A DNA stretch of 61,552 nucleotides from a virus (taxonomy: Duplodnaviria > Caudoviricetes), in the IMG/VR virus record IMGVR_UViG_3300027706_000010, positions 1 through 61,552 of that record; one strand, written 5' to 3'. The notes below the pieces were generated by a model. That model saw nothing but the letters and a program-made list of their open reading frames with translations, had not been told where the DNA came from and did no database searches. How positions within the stretch are numbered: position 1 is the stretch's first letter; each line of letters begins with the position of its first letter. This document shows positions 1,871-61,427 of the stretch, piece by piece. Position numbers and translations under genes: made by a program.

Positions 1871-1905
1871 TTGGATGTCTCCTTTGTGTTTCTCTTGATG
1901 TTCTT

Positions 1906-1997
1906 AGTATAGCAGATGTCTCTATGTTTGTCAAGCTTTTTCTATGTTTTATTTGGTGATATGAAGGATTGACATTTTGAGACAAGGATAGTATAAT
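1906..1997. promoter_or_regulatory. Divergent sigma70-type promoters
   Basis: Plus strand TTGACA(1969)-17-TATAAT(1992), perfect consensus; minus strand TTGACA(1934)-17-TATACT(1911). Confidence 0.85.
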
Positions 1998-2033
1998 CTT
2001 TATGGTAGCATAATCTTAAAGGAGGACATTTGA

Positions 2034-2288
2034 ATGTCAGAGGAACAGTATATCTCGTTTGAAGAAGCTGAAGATAAGCTTGGAGTCACCAGGGCGACGC
2101 TTCACTACTATATGCGAGAATTAAAGATTGAGCGTTATAAGTTTCCGCTTGATAAGAGGGCGTATATGAAGCTGTCTGATTTTGAGCGGATACAGGCGGC
2201 GAAAGGTGCGGCAAGTCGAAGAAGTGGGCCGACAAACGGCGATCAAGCAGCAAAGGAGGAGTCGCATGCGAAAACAGCAGCAAGTTGA
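2034..2288 (+). CDS. Small HTH DNA-binding protein (excisionase/MerR-like)
   Basis: ISFEEAEDKLGVTRATLHYY HTH; strong RBS AAAGGAGG. Confidence 0.7.
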   Translation: MSEEQYISFEEAEDKLGVTRATLHYYMRELKIERYKFPLDKRAYMKLSDFERIQAAKGAASRRSGPTNGDQAAKEESHAKTAAS

Positions 2289-3288
2289 ATCCATCGAGGA
2301 GATGACCGGTGAGGCACTGATTGCGCAATTGCGGCTGTCGAAAGACCTGCAATTGGCCGCGAGGTTGCTTTCCCGTGAGCAAATTCGATTCCTGGTGGAT
2401 CTCTATTATATCCTCCAGGAGAATCGCATCCGTGCGCAAGCCCAGGTGCGCACGGCAGGGGAGGAGCCAAACCTGCTCATTTCCTGGACATACGATCTCT
2501 ACCGGCAACTTGAGACGGATGTAAGGCAGGCGCTCTTGCACTTTGCTGAGGGGCATATTCCGGGCCAATGGGCGCTTAGCGTTAAGGGGATCGGCCCGGT
2601 GCTTGCGGCGGGCCTCATCGCCCGCATTGACATCACCAAGACCCCAACGGTAGGCGCCCTCTGGCGCCGGGCGGGCTACGATCCGACCTCACACTGGTTG
2701 GGGAAGGGAGATGCGCAGAGGATCATGAAAAAGTACCCCGGTCCCCTCTCTGATGAGGTGTTGGTCGAGATCGCCCGTGAAACCGGGCGCAACGCCTCCC
2801 GGCTGTACCAGGCATGCGTTGATCCTGACACCGGCGAAGTTTCCCGGGCTGCTTTGACCGCGTTGCTGGCGAAACGTCCCTGGGATGCGGCCCTCAAGCG
2901 ATTGTGCTGGCTTGCCGGGCAATCCTTTGTCAAATCGAGTGGCCGGGAAGGATCCTTTTACGGGCCGCTCTACAGGCAGAGGAAATTATACGAAATGCAA
3001 AAAAATGAGGAGGGAGCCTATGCGGATGAGGCCGCGCGGGTGCTCAAAGAGAAGTTCTATGGAAAGGACACAGAAGCGTATAAATGGTATGCGCAGGGGA
3101 AGTTGCCCCCGGCCCACATCCAGGCCCGGGTGGAGAGATGGGTAGTCAAGCTTTTCTTGAGCCACCTTCATGCGGTCATGTATGAGGACTATTTTGGGAA
3201 GCCTGCGCCCAGGCCCTACATCATCGCTATCGGAGGACACCAGGATTATATCGAGATCCCGAACTGGCCCATATTATCCAACAAATAG
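2266..3288 (+). CDS. IS110/Nop-domain RNA-binding protein without nuclease domain (TasA-like)
   Basis: Coiled coil LVDLYY..Q..RIR, IS110-type SVKGIGPVLAAGLIA and LWRRAGYDP motifs, C-terminal HIQARVERWVVKLFL; no N-terminal DEDD RuvC and no catalytic SG serine motif; RBS AAAGGAGG before ATG 2266. Confidence 0.75.
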   Translation: MRKQQQVESIEEMTGEALIAQLRLSKDLQLAARLLSREQIRFLVDLYYILQENRIRAQAQVRTAGEEPNLLISWTYDLYRQLETDVRQALLHFAEGHIPGQWALSVKGIGPVLAAGLIARIDITKTPTVGALWRRAGYDPTSHWLGKGDAQRIMKKYPGPLSDEVLVEIARETGRNASRLYQACVDPDTGEVSRAALTALLAKRPWDAALKRLCWLAGQSFVKSSGREGSFYGPLYRQRKLYEMQKNEEGAYADEAARVLKEKFYGKDTEAYKWYAQGKLPPAHIQARVERWVVKLFLSHLHAVMYEDYFGKPAPRPYIIAIGGHQDYIEIPNWPILSNK

Positions 3289-3310
3289 ACCTCATAGGTC
3301 TCAAAAACGC

Positions 3311-3571
3311 GAAGTGAACCAATAGCTGCATGAGTACCAAGTTACGTGAGTGAGCCATTGACTGAATGCACGCCTCTCCTGGGGCGCACATTCAGTCAGA
3401 ATGGGCGTGCGAGCCACAGCAGCAATATGTACCATCGAGAGGGGGCGATCCAATCAAGAGAGCGAACCAATGAGTTCGAGCAGCATCCAACGGCAAAGCG
3501 TGAGCCATTTTACTAGTGTGTACCATCTGCTCAGAGCGAACCAGGCTTTAGGCGAGTAACCAATGGAGCAG
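3311..3571 (+). ncRNA. TIGR-like tandem dual-repeat guide array
   Basis: CCA at 3319, 3337, 3355, 3414, 3432, 3450, 3467, 3487, 3505, 3523, 3541, 3560 (mostly 18-nt spacing); repeats alternate between (a/c)g(t/c)ga(a/g)CCA and t(g/a)(a/t)gtaCCA around unique 9-nt spacers. Confidence 0.75.
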
Positions 3572-3606
3572 AGAATCAGGGGATCCTGATTCTCTGCTCC
3601 ATTGGT
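3559..3606. repeat. Perfect 22-bp inverted repeat ending the array
   Basis: accaatggagcagagaatcagg-ggat-cctgattctctgctccattggt. Confidence 0.95.
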
Positions 3607-3611
3607 ATACT
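3603..3611 (+). promoter_or_regulatory. Extended -10 promoter candidate for csf operon
   Basis: TGgTATACT 24 nt upstream of GTG 3635, with GGAGG RBS between. Confidence 0.5.
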
Positions 3612-3634
3612 AGAGCCAAAAATCGGAGGCCCTG

Positions 3635-4513
3635 GTGTCTTTTCCTCTTTCCTGGCTCTATCATCAATATGGCGGCTCCTTCCCGGTGGGAAGTGAGCGC
3701 TGCTACCTCTGTGGAGCATCCTGTGCCGCGACATATACCGTTGCGGCAGGCATTGCCGATACCTTCAATTCTCATTTTCTGGCAGTGTGCCCTCATTCGC
3801 CCTATCTTTGTGCTGCCTGCGCCTGGTACCTCGATGGCAAAGCGGACCATCCCGAATTTCGCAAGATGAGCCTGGTCGTTACCCGGCAAGCGTGGCGCAA
3901 TTGGGAGCGGGCAACTATGAAGCAGGATATTGCACGCTGGCTTGCCGGTGGTTTGCCGGAGGATGCCTACCTTGTGGTATCGCTGAGCAAGAAAAAGCAT
4001 ATCCTTCTGCAAGCGCCACTCAATGTAAGCAGCAGCTCCACGCTTGCGGTGCAGATCGAGGAACAGGTCGCCTATTTGACTGCGAGCGTGTGGGGAGAGA
4101 TGGATGCTGCATTTATGGCTCTGCTCGAATTAGGACACGGGAAAGGCGAAATTTTGAGTGGCGCATTGCATCCATCCGTGCTGCGCAAGCATGGCAGGAT
4201 TGCCGAGGCCCTCGCGCTCTCACGACAATTAGAGCGGTGGCGTGCCTCATCCTCTCTTGAGTTGCTGAGTTATGTTACAATCACGGAAAACAAGGAGGAG
4301 GCACCCCATGATGGACATAGAGGAAGAGGTGATCCCCCCGTATCGGCAGGAACTCGAACGGCATCAGATCGCGGCGGCGTTTCTGCGCGCCGTCTACAAC
4401 GGGATCGAGTGGGACGAGTGGGGGAAATATCGGATGACGATCTGGACGATTCTAGAGACGACGGTAGCCAATGCGGCCCGTATGTCTGCCAGTCTGCTCT
4501 CTTTCCAGAGTAA
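3635..4513 (+). CDS. csf1: Type IV CRISPR large subunit Csf1 (Cas8-like)
   Basis: N-terminal zinc finger CYLCG...CAAC, KKHI motif, first gene of a csf2/csf3/cysH operon. Confidence 0.75.
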   Translation: MSFPLSWLYHQYGGSFPVGSERCYLCGASCAATYTVAAGIADTFNSHFLAVCPHSPYLCAACAWYLDGKADHPEFRKMSLVVTRQAWRNWERATMKQDIARWLAGGLPEDAYLVVSLSKKKHILLQAPLNVSSSSTLAVQIEEQVAYLTASVWGEMDAAFMALLELGHGKGEILSGALHPSVLRKHGRIAEALALSRQLERWRASSSLELLSYVTITENKEEAPHDGHRGRGDPPVSAGTRTASDRGGVSARRLQRDRVGRVGEISDDDLDDSRDDGSQCGPYVCQSALFPE

Positions 4514-4715
4514 GATCGCGCAGATGATGCACGTGGCCGAGATTGGCCGCGATGATGCTGAGCGCCGTTATGTTGCCGATGTGCTCGCGGGCCGCTACGG
4601 CGATCCTGATGCTATTCTTGCGGCGCTGCGGCGTGATCCGCAGGTCTGCGTCATGCTCATGCGCCTCCAGAAAGATGAGGAGAAAGCCTATGCCAACCAG
4701 CAGCTATCGTTTTGA
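4308..4715 (+). CDS. cas11: Type IV-B small subunit (Cas11-like)
   Basis: About 135-aa helical protein between csf1 and csf2; RBS AAGGAGGAGG. Confidence 0.65.
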   Translation: MMDIEEEVIPPYRQELERHQIAAAFLRAVYNGIEWDEWGKYRMTIWTILETTVANAARMSASLLSFQSKIAQMMHVAEIGRDDAERRYVADVLAGRYGDPDAILAALRRDPQVCVMLMRLQKDEEKAYANQQLSF

Positions 4716-5643
4716 GGGAATCGCACGCGCGCTCAGCGCTGTGTCGCATGTAGGGGACAGCGCCGGGGGCACAACTGCCATCTTTCGCCGGGAGAAGGTT
4801 CTGGCTGATGGGCGGGTGATCGAGGTCCCGATTCTCAGTGGGAATGCCTTTCGCGGGCAACTCCGGGATACTGGCATGCGTTTTATGCTGCGCGAGCTGG
4901 GCAATCCGCAATTATCCCCGTCGGCCTTCCATTTCTTGACCAGCGGTGGAGCGCTGACAAAGGATGCGGGGCGCGGTCTTGATATCGGCCAGGCGCGGCG
5001 CCTGCGACAGCTTATCCCCCTTGTGGGCGTCTTTGGGGGTGCCTGTGGACGGCAAATCCTCGAAGGGAAACTTCGGGTCGGCAAGTGGTATCCGATCTGC
5101 CGCGAGTTGCGCTCGTTCCTGCCGCCGCACTATCGCGACATGCCCGAGGCTGACGTCAGCATCTACGAGATGACGGACCTGCACAGCTTCACGCGTATCG
5201 ACGATGCCAGATCTGAGCGCTGGCAACAATTCTTGCCGGAGGCGGAGCGCGCGCATTTGGAAGCGCCAAAGGTGAGGCAGGCAAAGGATGGCACCGAGAT
5301 CGCTGAGAAGGCGGGCACGGCGCAGCAGATGCGTTACTCGCAGGAGGTGCTGGTCGCTGGTACGCGCTTCTACTGCTGGCTACAACTTTGCGATGTGACC
5401 GATCTCGAATATGAAGCCTTTGCCTCAGCGCTCGTAGAGTGGAGCCGTGCGCCTTTTGTTGGTGGGCAATCGCGGCATGGCTGCGGCGAGGTGGAGCTGC
5501 GCTTTGATAAGTGGCTCTCGGTCTCGCCGCTCTCGCGTGCGGCTTCTGAGATGGCGGTAGGGCTGCCTGCCGGGCAGGCATACGTTGAGCATCTGCATAA
5601 AGAGCGTGATGCCATTCTGCATGCCCTCAAGGAGATCGTGTGA
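4690..5643 (+). CDS. csf2: Type IV Cas7-family backbone Csf2
   Basis: RAMP motifs ALSAVSH, VPILSGNAFRGQLRD, PLVGVFGG, G-rich loop VGGQSRHGCG. Confidence 0.85.
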   Translation: MPTSSYRFEGIARALSAVSHVGDSAGGTTAIFRREKVLADGRVIEVPILSGNAFRGQLRDTGMRFMLRELGNPQLSPSAFHFLTSGGALTKDAGRGLDIGQARRLRQLIPLVGVFGGACGRQILEGKLRVGKWYPICRELRSFLPPHYRDMPEADVSIYEMTDLHSFTRIDDARSERWQQFLPEAERAHLEAPKVRQAKDGTEIAEKAGTAQQMRYSQEVLVAGTRFYCWLQLCDVTDLEYEAFASALVEWSRAPFVGGQSRHGCGEVELRFDKWLSVSPLSRAASEMAVGLPAGQAYVEHLHKERDAILHALKEIV

Positions 5644-6401
5644 TGCGTCCTCTGCGAGTCGTCGCGCGCCTGGCTGGTTCCATCGCTCTTGCGCGCGCGG
5701 AAGATATCGCGCTTGATGGCCTGCTGGCCTATCAGATGCTGCGGCGCCATTTTGGCGAGGAATTTTATCATCTCCCGGATGCGAAAGAGCATCTGGTCTT
5801 CGCGGATCTTCCGCTGGAACGGCGCGGCGCGCCGTCGGCGCGTATTGCCACGCTCCAGACCGGGGATACCTGGATGCAGCCGGGGCGAGGGATTGTCGAT
5901 GAAAGTTTCTGGTACTGGGCCTGCTCCTCAGCACAGATCGAGGTCCAGGGATACGCAACGCAGTACTGGAACAAACGGTTTGATACTCAGGCCGCGCTCT
6001 CCGATCATATCGACTTTGGCGGCAAAGTCGAGAAGGTTCTGATTGAGCAGGGCCGCTATAAGAGCTACCATATGCCGCTGCCAACGCTCGTTACAGATCG
6101 CGTCGTCTGGTATGCCTATGGCGATCTGGAGAGGGTCAAAGACCTCTTGCAGGATGTAATGAGTCTGGGGAAAAAGCGCAATTACGGTAATGGCATGGTG
6201 ATCGCCTGGAGTATTGATCCGATGGATGAAGACTGGTCTACCTGGCGCGGTGATCGCCTGATGCGGCCCGTTCCCGGACCGCTGCTTGCTGATATAGAGT
6301 GGAATGGACCGTTCAATATGCAGTATATTGCCTATCGCGCGCCGCAGTGGCACCCGGCCAATCAGGCGTTGTGTGTTGTGATAGGAAAACGGTATGCATG
6401 A
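5640..6401 (+). CDS. csf3: Type IV Cas5-family Csf3
   Basis: LDGLLAY, LPL, G.YKSY..P, WYAYGD and LGKKRNYGNG G-loop. Confidence 0.8.
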   Translation: MMRPLRVVARLAGSIALARAEDIALDGLLAYQMLRRHFGEEFYHLPDAKEHLVFADLPLERRGAPSARIATLQTGDTWMQPGRGIVDESFWYWACSSAQIEVQGYATQYWNKRFDTQAALSDHIDFGGKVEKVLIEQGRYKSYHMPLPTLVTDRVVWYAYGDLERVKDLLQDVMSLGKKRNYGNGMVIAWSIDPMDEDWSTWRGDRLMRPVPGPLLADIEWNGPFNMQYIAYRAPQWHPANQALCVVIGKRYA

Positions 6402-7182
6402 GGCAGAACGACTCTCGCACCAGTTGCATGCTCGTTTGCCCACATTTGCCCGTAAAGTGGAGCAGGCGCAAACGAGTATTGAGGAGGCACTGGGCTGCAT
6501 GCATGCGCCCTATGTCGCTTTTAGCGGCGGGATTGATAGCACGGTCCTGCTCGATCTGCTCTTTCAGGCAGGATATCATCTCCCTGTGCTGTGGGGAGAT
6601 GACGGCTACGACTATCCTGAATCTCTGACATTTCTTCGAGAGAGCGAGCAGCGGTATGGCTTTCACCTTCAGCGTATTCGCTGCATGCAGCCCTGGCGCG
6701 ATTGGTGCCTGGAGATGGCCCGACCAGATCTTGCCGAGGATCCTGCGGCGCGTGCCTCCTGGGGGAATCCTCCTCTGTGGGATGCTACGTGGAACTCGCT
6801 CAAAGATGCCTCTTTGCATGCATATGACGGTGTATTTCTGGGCTTGCTCGCTTGTGAGAGTCGAGGGCGCAGATATGCGCTCAAAGGCGGTAGACGCGTA
6901 GTCTATCAGGTACAAGGCGAGGGGGGCATGTGGCATTGCAGTCCGCTCGCGCAGTGGAGCAAACGTGACATCTGGGCATATGCCATAGCACGCAATCTTC
7001 CTTATAATCCCGTCTATGATCGCCTGGCTGCCTACGGTATCCCCTGCGAGCAGCGCCGTGTTGCCCCGCTCACCTGCTTTCGCGTCGTGCAGTACGGGAG
7101 TCATGTATGGCTCAAATCTGGCTGGCCCGATCTCTACAATTCTCTTGCTGGTACGTTCCCCCGTGTGCGCTCCTCCGTCTAG
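6394..7182 (+). CDS. cysH: CysH-like PAPS-reductase-family protein (type IV-B associated)
   Basis: PP-loop YVAFSGGIDS, ES..R, PLAQWSKRDIWAY, LPYNPVYD. Confidence 0.85.
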   Translation: MHEAERLSHQLHARLPTFARKVEQAQTSIEEALGCMHAPYVAFSGGIDSTVLLDLLFQAGYHLPVLWGDDGYDYPESLTFLRESEQRYGFHLQRIRCMQPWRDWCLEMARPDLAEDPAARASWGNPPLWDATWNSLKDASLHAYDGVFLGLLACESRGRRYALKGGRRVVYQVQGEGGMWHCSPLAQWSKRDIWAYAIARNLPYNPVYDRLAAYGIPCEQRRVAPLTCFRVVQYGSHVWLKSGWPDLYNSLAGTFPRVRSSV

Positions 7183-7257
7183 AAGCTCATTTTGCGATCC
7201 TTCGGCCCACCCACTGATGAATTTTTGCGAGTGCACGGAAACTCGTGGCAAAAGGGC

Positions 7258-7287
7258 TTGACAAAGCATATATCTCTGATATATACT
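7258..7287 (+). promoter_or_regulatory. Sigma70-type promoter
   Basis: TTGACA(7258)-18-TATACT(7282). Confidence 0.7.
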
Positions 7288-7335
7288 AAAGATATCAAAG
7301 ATATACGCTTTCTGAGAGAAAAGGAGGACACAGAA

Positions 7336-7566
7336 ATGGCACAGATGACATGGAATGAGACCGCGTATCAGTATGAGTTTGCATTGCCCAATGGGGATCT
7401 GCTCACGGTATCGGGCGACGAGTTCGCCGAGGCTGTGTACGAGGCCGAGCAGGGAAATCCTGAAGCATTTGAAGAGATGCTTGAGCCGATGCAGTGGATG
7501 GCGCTCGTGGGGGATAATCCCAACGTCGAGATTATCCCCGCCCATGAGCGGGGGGTGTGCCTGTGA
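7336..7566 (+). CDS. Small acidic hypothetical protein
   Basis: RBS AAGGAGG before ATG 7336. Confidence 0.6.
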   Translation: MAQMTWNETAYQYEFALPNGDLLTVSGDEFAEAVYEAEQGNPEAFEEMLEPMQWMALVGDNPNVEIIPAHERGVCL

Positions 7567-8562: not shown

Positions 8563-8723
8563 GTTGCTTTCTGCCACGTTGTTCTACTTGTTTGTATTCT
8601 CTGATATTTTCATATAGTACTATGAAGTTGTGAAGAGTCTAGGTAAATTGATGAGACTATGATATACTGTACAGGCATCCACACGGATGCCTATTTCTTT
8701 TGTCTCTGGATGGTTGTTTTCGT

Positions 8724-10175
8724 ATGCGAACGTTTAAGTATCGGCTCTATCCGACAAGGCGACAACAGGATGCCCTGCGATGGATTCTTGCCCGGTGTTG
8801 CGAATTATATAATGCTGCGCTCCAGGAGCGTCGTGATGCCTATGAGATGTGTGTCAGGCGGCATCCTGGCTATTATGATAAAGAGACGCGCCGAAAACAG
8901 ACGAGAGCGTATGCAATTACCAAATATGCTCAATCCAGAGAACTGACTGAAATTAAACATGAGATTCGCCCGGAGTATCAAGAAATTGGCGATCATGTTC
9001 TGCGCAATGTTTTGCAGCGTATTGATCTTGCATTTCAAGCGTTCTTTCGACGGGTGGCAGAGCGAGAGAAACACGGGGGTACAGGCAAAGTTGGGTATCC
9101 TCGTTTCAAAAGCTCCAGGCGGTATGATTCCTTTGCCACGGATAGCGCCTGTAAAATCCGCGATGGCCGTCTTGAGGTCAAGGGTGTGGGATGGGTTAAA
9201 GTCAAGCTCCATCGCCCGCTGTCAGGTGAGATTAAAACCTGGACGGTCAAACGGGAAGGGGAGCACTGGTATGTCTGTATCGTGTGCGATCAGGCGGCGC
9301 AAGAGACACCGCTCCCCTTCAATGGTGAGGCGGTTGGTATTGATCTTGGACTCCTGCATTTTGCCACGCTTTCGACCGGGGAAACGATTGAGAATCCGCG
9401 TTACTTTCGGCAGGCTGAGAAGAAGCTGGCCTTGCACCAGCAGGCGCTTGCGCGTAAGAAACGCAAAGATAAACGAACCGGATGTAAAGGGCATCGGCGG
9501 GAACGCGCGGTGAAACTGGTTGTCGCAGCGCATCGCAAGATCCGGAATCAGCGCCGCGATTTCCAGCACAAGGCATCGCGCCAGCTAGTGAATCGGTATG
9601 GCGCAATCGTATTCGAGGAGCTACAGCCTGCGAATCTCAGCAGGCGCCCAAAGGCGAAACAGGCTGAGGATGGGCATTACTTGCCCAATGGGGCCTCGGC
9701 AAAATCAGGACTCAATAAATCTATCTTAGATGCTGGTTGGGGCACGTTTGTACAGATGTGTGCGTACAAGGCGGAAGGGGCTGGTCGTGCGCTTGTGCAA
9801 GTCGATCCCAGAAATACCAGTCAGATCTGCTCAGGATGTGGAGAAATAGCCCATAAGAAGGATCTCAGCGAGCGCTGGCACGCATGTGCATGCGGGTGCT
9901 CGCTGGACCGCGACCATAATGCGGCGATCAACATTGTGCGGCGTGGGTTGGCATCTCTGAACCATGCAGATCTGAATTATCCAGCATTCCGCGAGGCAGA
10001 AAGCGGTGCTTTTCTCAAGCAGGATGCCTCGCAGCACACCGATGGGGGCGGGCCGCCCCTGCGCACCCGCAAGGGTGCGTGCACCCGCGAGGGTGCGTGC
10101 GCCCGCAAGGGCGCACTCAAGTCCTCTTCTTCTTCTCATGCTGCCTCGCAATTGGCGCTGTGGCCTGGCCTGTAA
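8724..10175 (+). CDS. tnpB: TnpB/Cas12f-like RNA-guided nuclease adjacent to CRISPR array
   Basis: MRTFKYRLYPT start, GYPRFK, RuvC-I GIDLG, RuvC-II VFEEL, zinc finger CSGC..CACG, RuvC-III DRDHNAA; about 65-aa low-complexity tail; no tnpA nearby. Confidence 0.9.
   Translation: MRTFKYRLYPTRRQQDALRWILARCCELYNAALQERRDAYEMCVRRHPGYYDKETRRKQTRAYAITKYAQSRELTEIKHEIRPEYQEIGDHVLRNVLQRIDLAFQAFFRRVAEREKHGGTGKVGYPRFKSSRRYDSFATDSACKIRDGRLEVKGVGWVKVKLHRPLSGEIKTWTVKREGEHWYVCIVCDQAAQETPLPFNGEAVGIDLGLLHFATLSTGETIENPRYFRQAEKKLALHQQALARKKRKDKRTGCKGHRRERAVKLVVAAHRKIRNQRRDFQHKASRQLVNRYGAIVFEELQPANLSRRPKAKQAEDGHYLPNGASAKSGLNKSILDAGWGTFVQMCAYKAEGAGRALVQVDPRNTSQICSGCGEIAHKKDLSERWHACACGCSLDRDHNAAINIVRRGLASLNHADLNYPAFREAESGAFLKQDASQHTDGGGPPLRTRKGACTREGACARKGALKSSSSSHAASQLALWPGL
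9990..10170 (+). ncRNA. Structured RNA overlapping tnpB 3' end (omegaRNA/tracrRNA-like)
   Basis: Three tandem GNRA hairpins (10061-80 GCAA, 10081-96 GCGA, 10097-116 GCAA), closing stem gcgaggcag/ctgcctcgc, partial anti-repeat at 10128-10166. Confidence 0.6.
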
Positions 10176-10196
10176 AGCGGCCTCTCATCACCGGCC

Positions 10197-10750
10197 CTTG
10201 CAAGGCATGATAAGGAAGATGGGGATAGGCCACTCGACAAAACTTAGGCAGCTAAAAGTACCGGTAATACCTTGCAAGGCATGATAAGGAAGATGGGGAT
10301 AGGCCACAGGAAGATTTTCAAAGATCCCGAACGGATGCCGCAGACCTTGCAAGGCATGATAAGGAAGATGGGGATAGGCCACACAGATTAAGAGCGGTGT
10401 CACACTGCCACTTCTTAACTTGCAAGGCATGATAAGGAAGATGGGGATAGGCCACGATTTAGACCATTGCGTTGACGAAGATGGGAACATCTTGCAAGGC
10501 ATGATAAGGAAGATGGGGATAGGCCACGCTCCGGTGGTATTCGCGCCCTGCACGGATATGCCGAACTTGCAAGGCATGATAAGGAAGATGGGGATAGGCC
10601 ACCCGTTCAATCCCCGTACCGGCGCTGGCGCTAGAGGACCTTGCAAGGCATGATAAGGAAGATGGGGATAGGCCACCCGTTCAATCCCCGTACCGGCGCT
10701 GGCGCTAGAGGACCTTGCAAGGCATGATAAGGAAGATGGGGATAGGCTAC
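10197..10750 (+). CRISPR. CRISPR array, 8 repeats and 7 spacers
   Basis: 37-bp repeat CTTGCAAGGCATGATAAGGAAGATGGGGATAGGCCAC at 10197, 10271, 10346, 10419, 10491, 10566, 10640, 10714 (last ends CTAC); spacers 35-38 bp; spacers 6 and 7 identical; strand inferred. Confidence 0.97.
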
Positions 10751-10755
10751 CACCT

Positions 10756-25274: not shown

Positions 25275-28200
25275 CTACCTCACTTTCAGTCTATGGCCTG
25301 AATGGGGCTTCGGCAACTCTCCCAGGAGCGCATACGCTTGCCACTGCCACCGGCGGTACCGGTGCGAATATCTCGACGAAAGTTGGGACGGCCACCGGGT
25401 GGGGTGAGATTCAGGGCAGCAGTAATCCCTGGGGGGCACTTGGCAGTATTGGGTCTCAAAGTGGGGGAGGCTGGCTCCTCGACAGTACGCTATTAGAGGG
25501 ACAGGAGCTTATCGCGGGGACGTGGGGCGCGTCCATCCGATTATCAACAAGTGCTGGCTCTATCACGGCCACCATTACAATGCGAGCCAGCAAATACAAT
25601 GCTACCAGCGCAACCTATACGACTATTGGCTCGCTCACCAGTACCAGTGTCACGATCAACACGACACTGACCACCTTTACCCTCTCCTCGGCAAATTTAC
25701 CGGCGATGATCTTTGCCACCGGTGATAAGCTCTACATCGATGTGTGGCTTGATGTTACGACGAATAGCACCGGGTCTAGTACCGCGACAATTAACTGTTC
25801 CGTATCCTCGACGACAACCGGTCTTGCCGGGCGTGTGGAGATGGATACAGCAGGCTATCAGCCCTACCGGCAAAAAGATTTTAGTTTGCGGGCACGGATC
25901 GCGCAGGCAAAAAATTTCGCGCTGCGTGCACGGGTTGCACAGACGCGGAACTGGTCTTTACGCGCTCGCGTTCAGAATGCTGCCAATAGCCGTGCCAAAG
26001 ATTTCGCGCTACGCGTCAGAATCGCGCAATCAAAAGATTTTCGGCTGCGTGCCAGATTAGCGCAATCAAAAGATTTTAAGATGCGCGCCAGACTGGCCCG
26101 TGCGAAAGATTTCGCGCTGCGGGCTGCTATCCAGTCACCGGGTGTGCTGGCTACCGACACGTTTATTCGGGTTAATCAGTCAGGATGGGGCATTGCCAGT
26201 GACGGGGAAACGTGGGCCTATATTGACGGCAGTCAGGCATCGAGCATCGTGAGTGATGCCGGGCAAATCACCAGAGGCACCGGCTCAGCGCTGTTTGTGC
26301 TTGGCAGCAAGACGGCTGCCGCTGTCGATCTCAAAATTCGGGCATACATCACCGGCGCCGCCGGGGACCGCATGGGCGTGCTTGCCCGACTGCAAAACAC
26401 CACCACGTATTATCGGATGGCCTGGGAGGGTGGCGGCAATCTCAAGATCGAGAAGAGCCTGGCCGATACCGTGACAACGCTGGCCTCAAGCGCGTACAGC
26501 GTCACCTCACTGCAGTATTACTGGATACGCGCGCAGATTTATGATGTGGCCTCCGGTACACAGATCAACGCGAAAATCTGGCAGGATGGCACAACAGAGC
26601 CGTCCAGTTGGACGGTGACGACCACCGACATCAATCCGCTCACCGGCGCCGGGCAATTTGGCGTCTATCTCTTTACCGGCTCATCGTCCAATGTCGTCTC
26701 CGTCAACAATTTTACCGCGCTCTCGCTCACCAATCCGCGTGACTTTGCCTTGCGAGCACGTATCGGCGGGCGTGGCCTGCAAGATATTGCGCTGCGAGCA
26801 CGAGTGGGCGGCTTCCCACACTGGAAAGATTACGCGCTGCGCGCCCGAATGCGGGGCCTGGGCATCCGTGATTTCGCGCTGCGAGCAAGTCTGGACAATG
26901 CCGTCATCGCGCTGCCTGCCTACACGCCCGGTGCACTTTCTGTGACGATCAGTGGCACGACCTACCCGATTCTGGAAGGCTCGCTCAAGATCAGCGAGGA
27001 TATCACCGGACGCTCAACCTGCTCGTTCACCCTGCTCGACCCCACCGGTAACGTGCATTTTCGTTTTCGGCAGCCAGTTATCGTCACGCACAGTCAGCGC
27101 GGCCAACTTTTCCGAGGCTTTGTCGATACGCCGCAAGAACAAAATTTGCCACCCAATACAGCCAATGAGATTCAGATATCATGCATCGATGAGCACTGGC
27201 TAGCTGACAAACGCGCCTACGAGGGAGATGAATTCGTCAACCAGTATGCCGGTGATATTGCCACGTTCTATGCGCAAGAGCTTGCCCAGGATGGTGTATC
27301 GCAAGGCTACGCCATTGACCATGACACGACTCAGGCTGATTTTAGTGACGGCACGCTTTCAAATGTGGTCGCAGCGGCCAATATTGGCTCGACAAACATT
27401 GGAGATGGTGATCTGGAACTTGCGCCAGCCGGGACGGCACTCACCATCTTAGAAGGGACGCTCGGTGACTTTTTAAGTGGCACGCTGACAAACACGCAGG
27501 CCAATGGCCTCTATGGTCCTGATCTGAATAGTGCAGGCTATCTGAGCTTGCAGGTTCAAAATGGCATCAAATTGACCGGCAGCGCGACGATTGCGGGTGG
27601 GGGCAATCTCTATTCCTATGTCAAGATCTGGCAAGGGAGCTACACGATCCAATCCGGGGACGCGCTTTCGTATCGTGTGTGGATTGCCTCGACATCTCCT
27701 GAAATCAAAAGTGCCGTAGATATCGTCTTCACGGATGGCTCGACCTTGCGCGACTCGTCCTGTATCGATCAGCAGGGTATTGGCGCACACCCCAACAATG
27801 ATCTGTCCTTCTTTGCCTCAGACCAGTGGTATACGCGTAACATTCCCCTTGCATCTCTCGCAGGCAAAACAACGGCGTATGTGACCGTGGCGTTCGAAGG
27901 AGATAGCACCGGGGACTATGCCGCGTATTTTGAAAACATTCAGCTTGGCAGTACGACAATTTTTAACGGCAGCCGCTTAAATGTCTCGCCAGCGCAACAG
28001 ATGCAAAATGCTGGCTATACCAATGTACAGGTCGTGGTACAAGGCTTATTTGAAAAGACAGGATACCGGATCTCACCGGCATACGATCTCTCTGGTGTGG
28101 TGATTGCGCGCTCCTCGCTCATTTCCTGGCAGGATACCACCACGCAAACGGACAATGGCATCTTTGCACTGGCGGCAAAAGGCGTTACCGTTACCGTCGA

Positions 28201-39968: not shown

Positions 39969-41174
39969 TCATCCAGCCACCTTGCCCGCTCTGGCCTTGC
40001 CAGAACGAGTAGCGGGTGTCTGTCCAGAAGCGTTTCGCCTCTTCTGAGAGAGGCCCGTTTCCGATTGCCCACCGGTACGGTCTAATGCCTTTGCGAGAAT
40101 GTTGAGAGCGGCATTGTGATCTCGATCAAGCACCAATCCACATCCAGAACAGATGTGTGTCCTGACAGAGAGGCTCTTCTTGACTCGTGTGCCACACGCT
40201 GAGCAATCCTGCGACGTCCAGGCCGGTTCAACGGCTATCACAGGGATGGTATGCACTTGCCCATAATAGGTGAGCCACGAGAGAAAGCGCCCCCAGGCCG
40301 CATCACTGATGCTCTTCGAGAGGTGTCGGTTTCTGACGAGGTTGGCTATCTTCAAGTCTTCGTAGGCAATGAAATCGCTAGATGTCACGAGCGTGCTTGC
40401 CGTTTTACGGGCAAAGTCTTCACGCTGCCTACTGACTTTCAGATACGCCTTTGCCAGTGCTTTCCTGGCTTTCTTCCTATTCTGAGATTGCTTTTGCTTG
40501 CGAGAAAGTCGTCTGTGCAGCTTCTTCAAGCGTTTTTCGGCTTTGCGCAGATGACGAGGGTTAGCTACAGTATTGCCTTCTGAGTCCGTTAAGAACGCCT
40601 TCAAGCCCATATCGATGCCAACCTGTTTGCCGGTAGGGATATGCTCAATCTGTCTCTCTGCATCAACAGCAAACTGAGCATAGTAGCCATCGGCCCGCTT
40701 GACAATCCGTACCCGCTTGATTTGCTTCGTGGGGAACTCTTCAATGCGTTGGTTCTTGTTGCCTACAAGCCGCAAGCGTCCAATGTTGCAACCATCGGTG
40801 AAGGTGATATGCTTGCCATCCGGCTCCAACTTCCAGCCCGTTTGTTTATACTCGACACTCCTGTTATCATGCTGGAAGCGGGGATAGCCCTTCTTGCCGG
40901 GCTTGTGGGTCTTGCAATTGGCATAGAAGCGTGAGATAGCCGCCCACGCTCGTTCAGCAGCCGCTTGCCGCGCTTGAGAATTGAGTTTTGAGGCAAAAAG
41001 AAACTCTTTTGCAAGCTGAGAGCAAGCTGCGTTAAGATCATAGCCATTCGTGCCACGAGTGTCCATCCACAAGCGAAGTGCCTTGTTACGGATGAACTGC
41101 ACAATGCGTATCGCCTCATCAATGGCGGCATATTGTTCTTTGGTGCCACGCAGCTTGTACTCAAAAATCAGCAT
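39969..41174 (-). CDS. tnpB: IS605 TnpB
   Basis: GIDMG, AYEDL, CSAC..CSGC, DRDHNAA. Confidence 0.92.
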   Translation of the reverse strand: MLIFEYKLRGTKEQYAAIDEAIRIVQFIRNKALRLWMDTRGTNGYDLNAACSQLAKEFLFASKLNSQARQAAAERAWAAISRFYANCKTHKPGKKGYPRFQHDNRSVEYKQTGWKLEPDGKHITFTDGCNIGRLRLVGNKNQRIEEFPTKQIKRVRIVKRADGYYAQFAVDAERQIEHIPTGKQVGIDMGLKAFLTDSEGNTVANPRHLRKAEKRLKKLHRRLSRKQKQSQNRKKARKALAKAYLKVSRQREDFARKTASTLVTSSDFIAYEDLKIANLVRNRHLSKSISDAAWGRFLSWLTYYGQVHTIPVIAVEPAWTSQDCSACGTRVKKSLSVRTHICSGCGLVLDRDHNAALNILAKALDRTGGQSETGLSQKRRNASGQTPATRSGKARAGKVAG

Positions 41175-41569
41175 CAGGTTCGACTCTGCCTCTCAATGTA
41201 TTTCTGTATCGTGTCCTGACTGACAAAGCCAGCCGTGCTATAGAAGGTGCTTCGTGTCCACAGCGAGGGCATCCGCTTGAGATGAGGAAATTCTTCCCGC
41301 ATGTGATGCGAGGAACGGCCCTTTATCAAGCGGGGAATGTCCGTAGGCAGCGTGTAGGGATTGGCCTGAATGAACAGATGCACGTGATCTGGCTGAATTG
41401 CCAGTTCGACAATTTTCCACCCGTTTTCTTCTGCCACTTCACGGACGATCTGCTCGAAACGGTCACGTACTGGCCCTACCAGTATCTTGCGCCTTCGTTT
41501 CGGGCAAAAGATGATATGGTAGAGAATGTGATGAACCGTATGTTGTTCGTGAATATACTCGTCACTCAT
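41174..41569 (-). CDS. tnpA: IS200 Y1 transposase
   Basis: YHIIFCPKRRR, HUH motif DHVH, KGRSS, LWTRS, KYIE. Confidence 0.92.
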   Translation of the reverse strand: MSDEYIHEQHTVHHILYHIIFCPKRRRKILVGPVRDRFEQIVREVAEENGWKIVELAIQPDHVHLFIQANPYTLPTDIPRLIKGRSSHHMREEFPHLKRMPSLWTRSTFYSTAGFVSQDTIQKYIERQSRT

Positions 41570-41762
41570 GTATACAAGTATAGCGCAAACAACATACCTT
41601 GTCAACATTCCCCACCCTATCCCCAACTAAGGAACGGCGCTCTCATCCCCCGCTTGAAAGACGGGGGTTTTCCCGCGCCGGTTGTATAACCCCAGGCACC
41701 ACCCCCGTCAGATATGGCTCAGAATGCAAAATTGAAAGCCCCAATGCAGGTACAGGCGCAAT

Positions 41763-41818: not shown

Positions 41819-42511
41819 TCATTTCTCTTCATATTCAGCAAGCACCGCAACACGCTCATCCATCCACCGTGAAATTTTTTCAATGATCTCATCCCCCGCC
41901 ATTGCCGCCGACCACTCCGCCGCCCACGCCGACTCCGCCGACCACGCCGACCACGCCGACCACTCCGCCGACCTTGCCGCCCTTGCCGTCGACCACTCCC
42001 CCGCCATTGCCGTCGACCACTCCGCCGCCCACGCCGACTCCGCCGCCATTGCCGCCGACTCCGCCGCCATTGCCGCCGACCTTGCCGACTCCGCGTTTTC
42101 TTCTGTTGGGGCAGCAAGCCATCGTCTTGCAGCATCTATCGCGGCACGCGGGCGCTTGTCATCTGGATACATCTTTTCAAAGTTTTCTAGCACAAGTTCA
42201 GCGGCAAAGATAGACAATGCAACACTATCGTGTTTTTGCCAGCGCCAGACACGCACCAGGCGCATCTTTTGCCAGGCTTCTTTGTCATCATTGACAATAG
42301 AAGCTCCACTCACTTCGACTTGTGCAAGGATTTCCCCTTGCACATAGGTAAACGCCTGGTAGCACGTCCGCGAACAATGGAAGCCATTTTCACAGATGAT
42401 AAGCTCGTTGTCACGAACGGATTGCCATTCGCCGATGTGCCAGATGCAATCGCCTGATTCTGACCTGATTTCGTTATCAATCAGGCACAAAAATTTATAC
42501 CGCCGCTGCAT
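41819..42511 (-). CDS. Phage protein with Ala/Trp/Ser-rich repeats
   Basis: CENGFH N-domain, DKRPRAAIDAARRW, SAAWAAE repeats. Confidence 0.7.
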   Translation of the reverse strand: MQRRYKFLCLIDNEIRSESGDCIWHIGEWQSVRDNELIICENGFHCSRTCYQAFTYVQGEILAQVEVSGASIVNDDKEAWQKMRLVRVWRWQKHDSVALSIFAAELVLENFEKMYPDDKRPRAAIDAARRWLAAPTEENAESARSAAMAAESAAMAAESAWAAEWSTAMAGEWSTARAARSAEWSAWSAWSAESAWAAEWSAAMAGDEIIEKISRWMDERVAVLAEYEEK

Positions 42512-44326: not shown

Positions 44327-45133
44327 TTAGCTGTTCTCCTTTATCCTCCCACTAAAACAGAAATCGCGTACCGGGCACTTTTCGGCCCGGTGCTCCTGGC
44401 AGGACTGACATATCCTTGCAGGAATGTGTCCCGTCGTCACGGCACCCTTCACGCTGTAGCACCGGTCCATGTAGGGCCGGGCCAGCAGCGCATCATGCTC
44501 AATGCACCAGACTTTTAGCTCTTGCGTGTCCTTGCACTCAACGAGTATCAGCCCCCGCTCGATGCCAAGCACATGCATGTAGAGATTGCATTGGTGCCAC
44601 GCAGCTTCCGGGGGATCGCCCACCTCATCGAGCCGGGCAAAGTGATCGAGCTTATACCCCTTGATCTCGACCACGTACCGCTGCCCGGCCCAAAAGATCA
44701 CAGCATCCGGCGTGAAATGGAGAAAACGAACCTCGTCGAAGTGCGAACACTCAACTTCGACAATCTGGCCGAACTCGGCAAAGAGGCGCTGGTACTTTTC
44801 GTGCAGGTGCCAGCCATGCAGAAAGACCGCATTCTGGTGCGCGTCCCAGGGCTTCTGTTCGAGGGGACGCGCCTCTTCGGGATACAAAGCAAGTAGGACC
44901 TGGCGCCGCAGGCACCATTCTGAATCAGACTGCAAGATAGCGCTCACATGTGGCGCGCCCGTGCGCAGGGGCTTAGAGAGGCCCCATTGCACGAACATCT
45001 CTTCAACCTCCTGCTTGAAAAGCGCGGCGACGGTGCGCAGGCTAGAACGCTGGTGCGCTATCGTCATCCTCATCCTCTTCTCCTGCATCGCTCTCAATAC
45101 CAGCAGCGCCCCCAAACGCGCCATCGTCGCCAA
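44327..45133 (-). CDS. Cas4-like PD-(D/E)XK exonuclease (start uncertain)
   Basis: WCLR, TPD, VEIKG, QCNLY, C-terminal CQSC..CPVRDFC. Confidence 0.75.
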   Translation of the reverse strand: MATMARLGALLVLRAMQEKRMRMTIAHQRSSLRTVAALFKQEVEEMFVQWGLSKPLRTGAPHVSAILQSDSEWCLRRQVLLALYPEEARPLEQKPWDAHQNAVFLHGWHLHEKYQRLFAEFGQIVEVECSHFDEVRFLHFTPDAVIFWAGQRYVVEIKGYKLDHFARLDEVGDPPEAAWHQCNLYMHVLGIERGLILVECKDTQELKVWCIEHDALLARPYMDRCYSVKGAVTTGHIPARICQSCQEHRAEKCPVRDFCFSGRIKENS

Positions 45134-59952: not shown

Positions 59953-61420
59953 GAGAACGTTTCTAAGAAATGATGTCACCTGTTGACATGTGCGTACAAA
60001 CATGCTACAATCCTTCCATGAAGTTAAGTCAGTACGCCAAACAACAAGGCATCAGCTATCGAACAGCTTTACGCTGGTTTCGGGCGGGTACCATCAAAGG
60101 CTATCAGGCTCCCACTGGCACCATCATCGTGACAGAGGGAGAAAAACCGCCTGTTCATCTTGAGAAGGTTGCCATTTATGCTCGCGTCTCATCTGCTGAA
60201 CACAAAGCCAACTTAGAGAGACAAGCAGAACGGTTGCTACAGTATTGTGAGGCGCGCGGCTATCAGGTGGTACAAGTGGTGAAAGAGATTGCATCGGGCG
60301 TCAATGATAGCCGCCCGAAACTCATTGGACTCTTGAAGGATACGAGCATCACCCTGATTGTGGTAGAGCATCGAGACCGTCTGACTCGTTTCGGGTTTCA
60401 CTATCTGGAAACGCTCTTAGAAGTTCAGGGACGCAAGATCGAAGTGGTGAATGTGGCTGAGGATGACAAAGAGGACTTGATTGCTGATCTGGTAGCCATT
60501 GTTTACTCATTCACCGCCCGATTGTATGGGCAACGACGTGCTAAGCGGAAGACAGAAGCCTTAGTTGAGCAGTTACAAAGTGAGGACAAGTAGATGCAAC
60601 TGGTAGAGCAGCATGTGATTCGTAAAAATGACCCACGCTATGAGGCCATAGATCGTGCTGCTTTCGCGTCCAAGAATCTCTACAATGCTGCAAACTACCT
60701 TGTCCGACAAGCCTTCATCTTTCAGGGCACCTACCTGGGTTATGCTGAAATCTTCCATCTGCTGAAGGGGCATGACGCCTATCAAGCCTTACCACGTAAG
60801 GTGAGCAACGATGTCCTGAGGCTCTTAGATAAGAACTGGAAAAGCTTCTTCAAAGCAATCAAAGCGTGGAAAGCCCATCCTGAGCAGTTTTTAGGGCGGC
60901 CCAAACTGCCTGGTTACAAGGATAAAATCGAGGGGCGAAACATTCTTATCTATGATATTCAAGCACTCAGTAAGACGGCATTGCGAAAGGGGATAATTGC
61001 GCCGTCGCAACTTGGTATCACTGTTCAGACACAGCAGACGAACGTTAAGCAAGTCCGTATCATTCCTAAATCTACTCATTACGTGATTGAAGTGGTCTAT
61101 GAGCAAGAGCCTGAACAGGCAAGCGTGGATGCTTCACTCGTGGCCGGTATTGATTTGGGATTAGACAATCTGGCAACGCTTACCAGTAACAAGCCTGGTT
61201 TTGCGCCACGTCTGATAAGCGGCAAGCTCCTGAAGAGTATCAATCAGGGCTATAACAAGCGACGTGCAGAGCTTCAAAGCCAACTCAAGAACCGTTTTAC
61301 ATCCCGCCAACTTGAGCGGCTTACCGACAAGCGCAATCGACGTATCAAGCACCTTCTCCATAGTGCGTCCAAACAGATTGTTGCTTTGTTGGTAGCGGAA
61401 GGCATTGGCACCCTGGTCAT
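59953..61420 (+). mobile_element. IS607-family element, interrupted
   Basis: Serine transposase plus tnpB, starting at the repeat boundary. Confidence 0.85.
60018..60593 (+). CDS. tnpA: IS607 serine transposase
   Basis: N-terminal HTH, IYARVSS, EIASG, EHRDRLTRFG, FTARLYG. Confidence 0.92.
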   Translation: MKLSQYAKQQGISYRTALRWFRAGTIKGYQAPTGTIIVTEGEKPPVHLEKVAIYARVSSAEHKANLERQAERLLQYCEARGYQVVQVVKEIASGVNDSRPKLIGLLKDTSITLIVVEHRDRLTRFGFHYLETLLEVQGRKIEVVNVAEDDKEDLIADLVAIVYSFTARLYGQRRAKRKTEALVEQLQSEDK

Positions 61421-61427
61421 CCTATAG
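60594..61427 (+). pseudogene. tnpB: IS607 TnpB truncated just before RuvC-II
   Basis: SKNLYN and GIDLG present; ends at GIGTLVI, where foreign sequence begins. Confidence 0.8.

Follow-up and report, generated by a model that had tools for sequence, protein, structure and literature searches.

Known TIGR-Tas systems and the locus in this study

Faure et al. 2025 (PMC12045711) describe TIGR arrays as two alternating repeats of 8-12 nucleotides (nt) separated by 9-nt spacers. Each repeat has UG (box D) at its start and CCA (box C) at its end, the array is closed by a terminator-like hairpin, and RNAs of 36 nt were recovered from FpTasA. Experiments on another TasA have shown RNA-guided binding and reversible repression of transcription (bioRxiv 10.64898/2026.09.09.750476). 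Here we describe a putative member of this family in a soil phage, IMG/VR virus record IMGVR_UViG_3300027706_000010. The DNA analyzed (hereafter the window) is the whole record of 61,552 bases, which CheckV rates as 100% complete, and it is assigned to a temperate tailed phage because it encodes terminase, portal, tape measure, endolysin, primase, helicase and integrase. The locus in question consists of a gene at positions 2266-3288, which we call tasA, and a repeat array at positions 3313-3562. We consider it very probable that this locus is a TIGR-TasA system of the phage, that is, an RNA-guided DNA binder with its own guide array.

The closest described systems are the dual-repeat TIGR-TasA systems, such as FpTasA of Flavonifractor plautii (Faure et al. 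2025, PMC12045711). The window shares with them a solo Nop-domain Tas protein without a nuclease, a same-strand array directly downstream with two alternating 9-nt CCA-ended repeats, 9-nt spacers and an end hairpin, and the Tyr/His processing dyad that is typical of dual-repeat systems. It differs from them in having 12 repeats, a 50-nt hairpin insert and an irregular box D, as well as an insert of ~58 residues in TasA and a helix-turn-helix (HTH) gene translationally coupled upstream. TasR (9mty) and TasH (9w03, 21kl) show the same coiled coil, Nop fold and C-terminal P-Y...G-H loop, but both are nucleases, whereas TasA of the window is without RuvC or HNH. The bridge-RNA recombinases IS110, IS621 and ISCro4 have a related RNA-binding domain, as indicated by a weak Transposase_20 match and distant Foldseek matches; unlike them, TasA of the window is without the DEDD domain or the C-terminal serine recombinase part, and its guides would come from an array and not from a bridge RNA. 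Type IV-B CRISPR-Cas, which adjoins the array on the same strand, is likewise an RNA-guided nuclease-less complex on mobile elements, but the protein families are unrelated, type IV-B usually has no array of its own, and Tas is absent from 35 of 38 type IV-B loci.

Since the TIGR family was first described in 2025, the locus adds a member to it and not a new kind of system. The novelty implied by an initial annotation of this DNA, which was made from the sequence and without database searches, was thus overstated, as TIGR-Tas has already been described and has its curated model in NCBIfam, and the locus may already be listed in table S1 of Faure et al. 2025 or in TIGRSafari. The window offers a natural TasA locus in a complete temperate phage, with its promoter, coupled HTH gene, minimal array and closing hairpin mapped. 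With 3-4 guides only, it is a compact case for what a nuclease-less Tas does for a phage.

A Tas protein without a nuclease domain

The tasA gene is on the plus strand and encodes 340 amino acids (aa), which were analyzed with NCBIfam, Pfam, AlphaFold2 and Foldseek. The NCBIfam model "TIGR-Tas system RNA-guided endonuclease" (NF052498, TIGR_Tas_endo) matches the protein with 165 bits (cut-off 100) over profile positions 1-214 of 215, and the match was repeated in a search of the whole record. As the initial annotation had proposed, the protein appears to be without a nuclease: no nuclease family was matched in Pfam, NCBIfam or PADLOC, and neither HNH nor RuvC was seen. From its sequence and predicted structure, the open reading frame (ORF) at 2266-3288 is a true Tas protein, and because it has no nuclease domain, it is placed in subtype TasA.

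The AlphaFold2 model of TasA has a mean predicted local distance difference test (pLDDT) score of 90.9 and a predicted template modelling (pTM) score of 0.85. In this model, two long helices (residues 37-63 and 70-95) form a putative coiled-coil pair, which is followed by a predicted helical Nop domain. When the model was compared with the PDB by Foldseek, the top 10 matches were all TIGR-TasR (9mty) or TasH (9w03 and others), with a probability of 1.00, and the matches to TasR and TasH have TM scores of 0.44-0.66 at 14-20% sequence identity. A profile built from 30 TasA homologues also finds PDB 9mty (TasR) with an E-value of 7e-25, TasH chains with 9e-10 and IS621 with 0.0017. The Nop-fold check that had been suggested for this protein therefore came out in favor of Tas. 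The ~58-residue helical insert of TasA is also present in another protein (P0001, 58% identical).

It is also evident that the C-terminal segment PRPYIIAIGGH of TasA aligns with a segment of SpTasH, in which Y318 corresponds to Y289 and H325 to H296. Y289 and H296 are given as the catalytic residues of SpTasH for processing of the precursor tigRNA (PMC13421893). In the alignment of 30 homologues, H325 and P317 are invariant and Y is the consensus at position 318; Y318 is also identical in the pairwise alignment with P0001. TasA retains the Tyr/His dyad that processes precursor tigRNA in dual-repeat systems, and catalysis by it is predicted.

The gene could instead be a degraded transposase gene of the IS110 family with a chance periodicity behind it. 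Transposase_20 (IS116/IS110/IS902) is in fact the sole Pfam match of the protein, and several of the database homologues are labelled transposase. However, this match is sub-threshold (20.3 bits, cut-off 21.3), and the IS110 transposase model NF033542 scores 25.7 bits (cut-off 140) with only a C-terminal part matched (218-329), as compared with the 165 bits of the Tas model. A DEDD/RuvC-like N-terminal domain is absent, with just 39 residues N-terminal to the Tas profile match, and PF01548 has no match in Pfam. The top structural matches are Tas proteins and not IS621 or ISCro4, and these recombinases appear far lower in the Foldseek list (E-values 0.2-1.4). The CCA lattice described below is, moreover, far beyond chance, and the same repeats are found beside homologues. 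An IS110 transposase is thus refuted by the family-model scores, the missing DEDD domain, the Tas structural matches and the recurring CCA lattice, and we give a degraded transposase next to no chance of being correct. In reading the protein as Tas-like and not as a transposase, the initial annotation was right.

The TIGR array

The array at 3313-3562 contains 12 nine-base repeats, all of which end with CCA (box C kept in 12 of 12), on a lattice of 17-20 nt. All 12 CCA trinucleotides of this region are on the lattice and none is off it: the CCA ends are at 3321, 3339, 3357, 3416, 3434, 3452, 3469, 3489, 3507, 3525, 3543 and 3562, in steps of 18, 18, 59, 18, 18, 17, 20, 18, 18, 18 and 19 nt. 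The pattern CCA-N15-CCA-N15-CCA has six matches in the window, four of them in 3319-3543. In shuffles of the whole window that preserve dinucleotides, the mean number of matches is 0.61, and none of 100 shuffles reaches six.

Most of the repeats belong to one of two types, an edge type (type 1: AGTGAACCA, AGTGAGCCA, TGCGAGCCA, AGCGAACCA and CGTGAGCCA) and a loop type (type 2: TGAGTACCA, TATGTACCA, TGTGTACCA and GAGTAACCA). The first sub-array (3313-3357, plus strand) is one complete unit made of AGTGAACCA, a 9-nt spacer, TGAGTACCA, a 9-nt spacer and AGTGAGCCA. It is followed by a hairpin on the same strand (3359-3398), which lies within an insert at 3358-3407 and is found in a single copy in the window; the 71-nt context of this hairpin folds at -32.6 kcal/mol (z -3.1). 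The second sub-array (3408-3562, plus strand) has nine CCA-ended repeats. The three stretches over which the two types alternate strictly are 3313-3357, 3408-3452 and 3499-3543. In a fourth unit (3461-3507), the middle repeat is degenerate, and a half unit, which ends at 3562, trails the second sub-array.

The two strings of repeats quoted in the initial annotation are present exactly, at 3311-3357 and 3499-3543. Its proposal of two alternating repeat types stands for the three stretches but not for the array as a whole, in which two repeats are degenerate and the hairpin insert separates the sub-arrays. Similarly, the 9-nt spacers and 36-nt units that it described apply to most of the array, although spacers range from 8 to 11 nt. 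Its count of 5-6 units was too generous: given the degenerate middle repeat and the 50-nt insert, the sequence is that of an array with 3-4 predicted usable guide units of 36 nt.

Generic repeat tools hardly see this array. Tandem Repeats Finder reported nothing in 3200-3700, and the period-36 autocorrelation at the array is ~2.4 standard deviations over the window mean (0.367 vs 0.27, standard deviation 0.04). This blindness fits the escape of TIGR arrays from CRISPR-type detectors, as stated in the preprint (bioRxiv 10.64898/2026.09.09.750476). The strongest period-36 autocorrelation elsewhere in the window (25.9 kb and 41.9 kb) comes from coding repeats and not from guide arrays. One is a 36-nt (12-aa) coding tandem repeat at 25874-26140 inside the gene of a 1960-aa tail protein, and the other is a 9/12-nt coding repeat at 41892-42105, proline/threonine-rich in appearance, in the ORF 41822-42511.

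Arrays beside related tas genes

A protein search found 1318 proteins with E ≤ 0.001 among 8000 candidates scored, the best one returned being 58% identical to TasA. Related loci were found with alignment queries, as single-protein queries gave none. Among 125 loci, 58 have at least one chain of at least four CCA at steps of 17-19 nt, and nearly all of these chains are on the tas strand beside tas. The few chains of four CCA that are distant from tas or on the opposite strand are probably due to chance.

The two closest relatives inspected have arrays with the same two repeat types as the window. One of them (L124), a 1.8-kb metagenome contig whose TasA is 59% identical, has 30 CCA-ended repeats directly after tas, in which AGTGARCCA alternates with AGAGTACCA at steps of exactly 18 nt and both types start with AG. 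The other (L248) is a complete 59-kb phage found by similarity of the terminase (TerL); two segments of its TasA align at 62-68% identity. About 60 repeats follow its tas gene, with TGTGARCCA alternating with TGAGTACCA or TGAAACCCA. Homologues therefore do carry the periodic array, a point on which the initial annotation could have failed.

The tasA operon

A sigma-70-type promoter (TTGACA-17-TATAAT, 12 of 12 consensus positions) is found at 1969-1997 on the plus strand, where the initial annotation had placed a consensus promoter. A divergent promoter on the minus strand (1934-1906) matches 11 of 12 consensus positions. The first gene behind the plus-strand promoter is a small HTH gene of 84 aa (2034-2288, plus strand), which has weak matches to HTH_17/MerR_1 (Pfam) and mad1 (PADLOC). 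Its end overlaps the start of tasA by 23 nt, and a ribosome-binding site (AAGGAGG) is located 6 nt 5′ of the tasA ATG. No homologue of the HTH gene was found beside tas in 120 related loci. At the other end, the array runs into a terminal hairpin (3555-3611, plus strand) whose stem pairs perfectly over ~22 bp (-44.7 kcal/mol, z -11). Neither this hairpin nor the one within the array matches any Rfam family, and only far sub-threshold miRNA-like matches were obtained. Taken together, the promoter at 1969, the HTH gene, tasA, the TIGR array and the strong hairpin form one operon, whose expression is predicted.

Points against a TIGR-TasA system

Several observations weigh against reading the locus as a TIGR-TasA system. 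The arrays of the sister loci are 5-10 times longer (30 repeats in L124 and ~60 in L248, vs 12). The array is interrupted by the 50-nt hairpin insert (3358-3407), two degenerate repeats (GGCGATCCA and CAGCATCCA) fit either type poorly, and TG (box D; UG in RNA) opens only 4 of 12 repeats, the others starting with AG, CG, GG, TA, CA or GA. By its sequence, the array thus looks short and partly eroded beside those of the relatives. The terminal hairpin has no T-run behind it. The ~58-residue helical insert in TasA (residues ~145-202; window 2700-2870) is absent from TasA of L248. Finally, the search for targets of spacer pairs, which the initial annotation had recommended, was unsuccessful. With half-sites taken in both orders, seven spacer pairs in four arrangements had no site with two or fewer mismatches in the phage's own genome, and the three own-genome sites at three mismatches are close to the ~1.2 expected by chance (28 patterns). 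For the relatives, 607 consecutive spacer pairs from 43 loci gave no exact 18-mer in 1.87 Mb of phage/genome DNA, where 0.07 would be expected by chance.

Many of these features could be explained if the locus were a relic, in which tasA is intact, the array is decaying and holds no working guides, and the cassette is leaving this phage lineage. The low number of repeats relative to the nearest relatives, the irregular box D together with the two degenerate repeats, and the insert that interrupts the array all point in this direction. So do the sister phages that have the same type IV-B module and no Tas, which suggest that the Tas cassette comes and goes. However, the tasA frame is open, with conserved and catalytic residues intact, and the promoter matches the consensus at every position. 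Both repeat types and the 9-nt spacers are preserved in three units, and processing has been described even for minimal arrays of 1-3 units (PMC12045711). Moreover, AG starts throughout the 30-repeat array of L124 mean that AG need not be a sign of decay, and box D appears to vary in this clade. We therefore regard a relic as unlikely.

Proposed mechanism and targets

For a TIGR-TasA system, a mechanism can be proposed by analogy with characterized relatives. TasA would dimerize through its coiled coil, as other Tas proteins do. The array transcript would be cut in the middle of the edge-type repeat (AGTGARCCA / TGCGAGCCA) by Y318 and H325 of TasA, and the product would be a 36-nt tigRNA composed of half an edge repeat, spacer A, a loop repeat (of the TGAGTACCA type), spacer B and half an edge repeat. 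TasA might hold this tigRNA through box C (CCA) and box D (the bases that open the repeat). As TasA is without RuvC or HNH, it should bind without cleaving, and the bound protein would block transcription or replication of its target and not cut it. The nuclease-less programmable DNA binder that the initial annotation had proposed agrees, by analogy, with the published TasA work (bioRxiv 10.64898/2026.09.09.750476). The targets of the guides are most likely a competing mobile element or host genes.

Type IV-B CRISPR genes next to the array

The genes that immediately follow the array, which the initial annotation had overlooked, are a type IV-B CRISPR effector operon (3635-7182, plus strand; PADLOC/Pfam). 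It is composed of csf1 (3635-4513; PADLOC Cas8, 66 bits), cas11 (4272-4715; PADLOC Cas11, 45 bits), csf2 (4690-5643; PADLOC Cas7, 249 bits), csf3 (5640-6401; PADLOC Cas5, 159 bits) and a cysH-like gene for 3′-phosphoadenosine 5′-phosphosulfate (PAPS) reductase (6394-7182; Pfam PAPS_reduct, 65.5 bits), all of them on the plus strand. A long ORF on the opposite strand (6313-7545), overlapping cysH, is probably spurious. No Cas6 or DinG was matched in a PADLOC scan of the 63 other ORFs of the window. Csf2 of the window is 74% identical to a protein attributed to Reticulibacter mediterranei, and a sample of 401 genomes from the phylum to which locus L104 belongs gave no Csf2 match.

We then considered whether TIGR-TasA and this effector, which has neither an array nor Cas6, cooperate as a coupled system. 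Coupling could take the form of co-transcription from 1969, of loading RNAs of the TIGR transcript onto the Csf complex, or of TasA binding that marks sites for Csf/CysH. The gene order is in favor of such coupling, as csf1 starts 25 nt past the terminal hairpin of the array on the same strand. Because the hairpin is not followed by a T-run and a scan found no promoter between 3300 and 3800, transcription may run on into csf1. The arrangement is mirrored in one other type IV-B locus (L162), where a TasA gene (protein 21% identical), two TIGR arrays, one ORF and csf1-cas11-csf2 follow one another on one strand. Tas was also found in 3 of 38 other type IV-B viral records (188, 176 and 168 bits, family cut-off 100), in each case within 8 kb of csf2 and nowhere else in the record. 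The Tas-bearing rows (the window, L128 and L138) are scattered on a quick Csf2 tree of 36 rows, from which L161-L163 were omitted as partial. Furthermore, assembly of type IV-B complexes on non-CRISPR RNAs has been reported (as quoted in 10.1101/2023.08.24.554615).

The distribution of the two systems speaks against coupling. Tas is missing from the two nearest type IV-B phages (Csf2 identity 75-79%), although one of them has a 27-bit sub-threshold match elsewhere in the record, and a further phage (L159) has a Csf2 nearly identical to that of the Tas-bearing L138, yet no Tas. Conversely, none of the five type IV-B genes was found within 6 kb of tas in any of 120 TasA-relative loci, and type IV Cas7 was found nowhere in 50 TasA-bearing viral records (taken from 80, mostly the longer ones), in a search that recovered its positive control. 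L248, the nearest TasA relative and a TerL-related phage, is also without type IV-B. The control phages, which are the 26 of 80 terminase-similar phage records with contigs of at least 20 kb, have Tas in 1 of 26 and type IV Cas7 in 0 of 26. The proportion of Tas in type IV-B records (3/38) is not significantly higher than this (1/26; P = 0.46, one-sided Fisher's exact test), and it remains so when the window is included (4/39; P = 0.33). In L128, tas and the type IV-B genes are convergent and 2.4 kb apart, and in L138 they are 6.4 kb apart. Since the co-occurrence of Tas and type IV-B is not above the base rate of Tas in such phages, no functional link is shown, and we consider a coupled system very unlikely. 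In our literature search, no paper was found that links TIGR-Tas loci with type IV-B loci. Faure et al. (PMC12045711) describe TasA as having no clear protein associations except with ParB-like genes.

The TasA proteins of these other type IV-B records belong to another clade, being 21-26% identical to that of the window (L162, 3094-6920; L128, 12803-13973; and L166, the record of L138). Each of the three has textbook TIGR arrays, in which, for example, TGCGAGCCA alternates with TGAAACCCA.

A miniature type V CRISPR locus and an accessory island

Past the type IV-B operon, a gene of 491 aa (8700-10172, plus strand) matches Cas12f/Cas12u (PADLOC, 233 bits) and is labelled "transposase" in PHROG. 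Directly 3′ of it, and 3 kb downstream of the operon, a CRISPR array (10197-10751, plus strand) has eight repeats of 37 nt and seven spacers of 35-38 nt, the final two spacers being identical. The region 8700-10751 looks like a miniature type V CRISPR locus carried by the phage. Exact matches of 28-nt stretches from two of the seven spacers were sought in a viral contig collection, and none was found.

The left 11 kb could be imagined as one integrated RNA-guided arsenal, in which type IV-B is co-transcribed with the TIGR array and is fed with RNAs either from the array cut by TasA or from the Cas12f-type CRISPR array. If this were true, type IV-B would gain a natural guide supply. We find such integration quite unlikely, and most likely the type IV-B operon and the miniature type V locus share one accessory island with TIGR-TasA, each being a module of its own. 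Nevertheless, three RNA-guided modules (TIGR-TasA, type IV-B with CysH, and the Cas12f-like gene with its CRISPR array) form an unusual stack here, in addition to TnpB-like genes elsewhere in the window. The stacked modules are a natural setting for testing cooperation, although the controls used here do not show it.

Occurrence of the locus and other features of the phage

The DNA of 1900-3700 occurs in soil and mine metagenome runs from several studies, and no RNA run is among them. In one run (X3), which looks independent, tasA, the array and csf1 are on one contig with 0 differences from the window, although this run may be the source sample. Of four DNA runs whose contigs were compared, one has identical DNA over tasA-array-csf1 and the others have only short fragments; no array variants were found in them.

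Two TnpB-like genes match PADLOC Cas12f models and PHROG 506. The first (39972-41174, minus strand) is beside an IS200-type transposase gene (41177-41626, minus strand). The second (60594-61424, plus strand) is near the end of the record, beside a serine recombinase gene (59970-60590, plus strand). The replication module includes a Cas4-domain / RecE-like exonuclease gene (44330-45133, minus strand; PHROG 1706 and 1990). A site in another phage locus (L122) shares 94.5% identity with a 55-nt sequence at 41629-41683.

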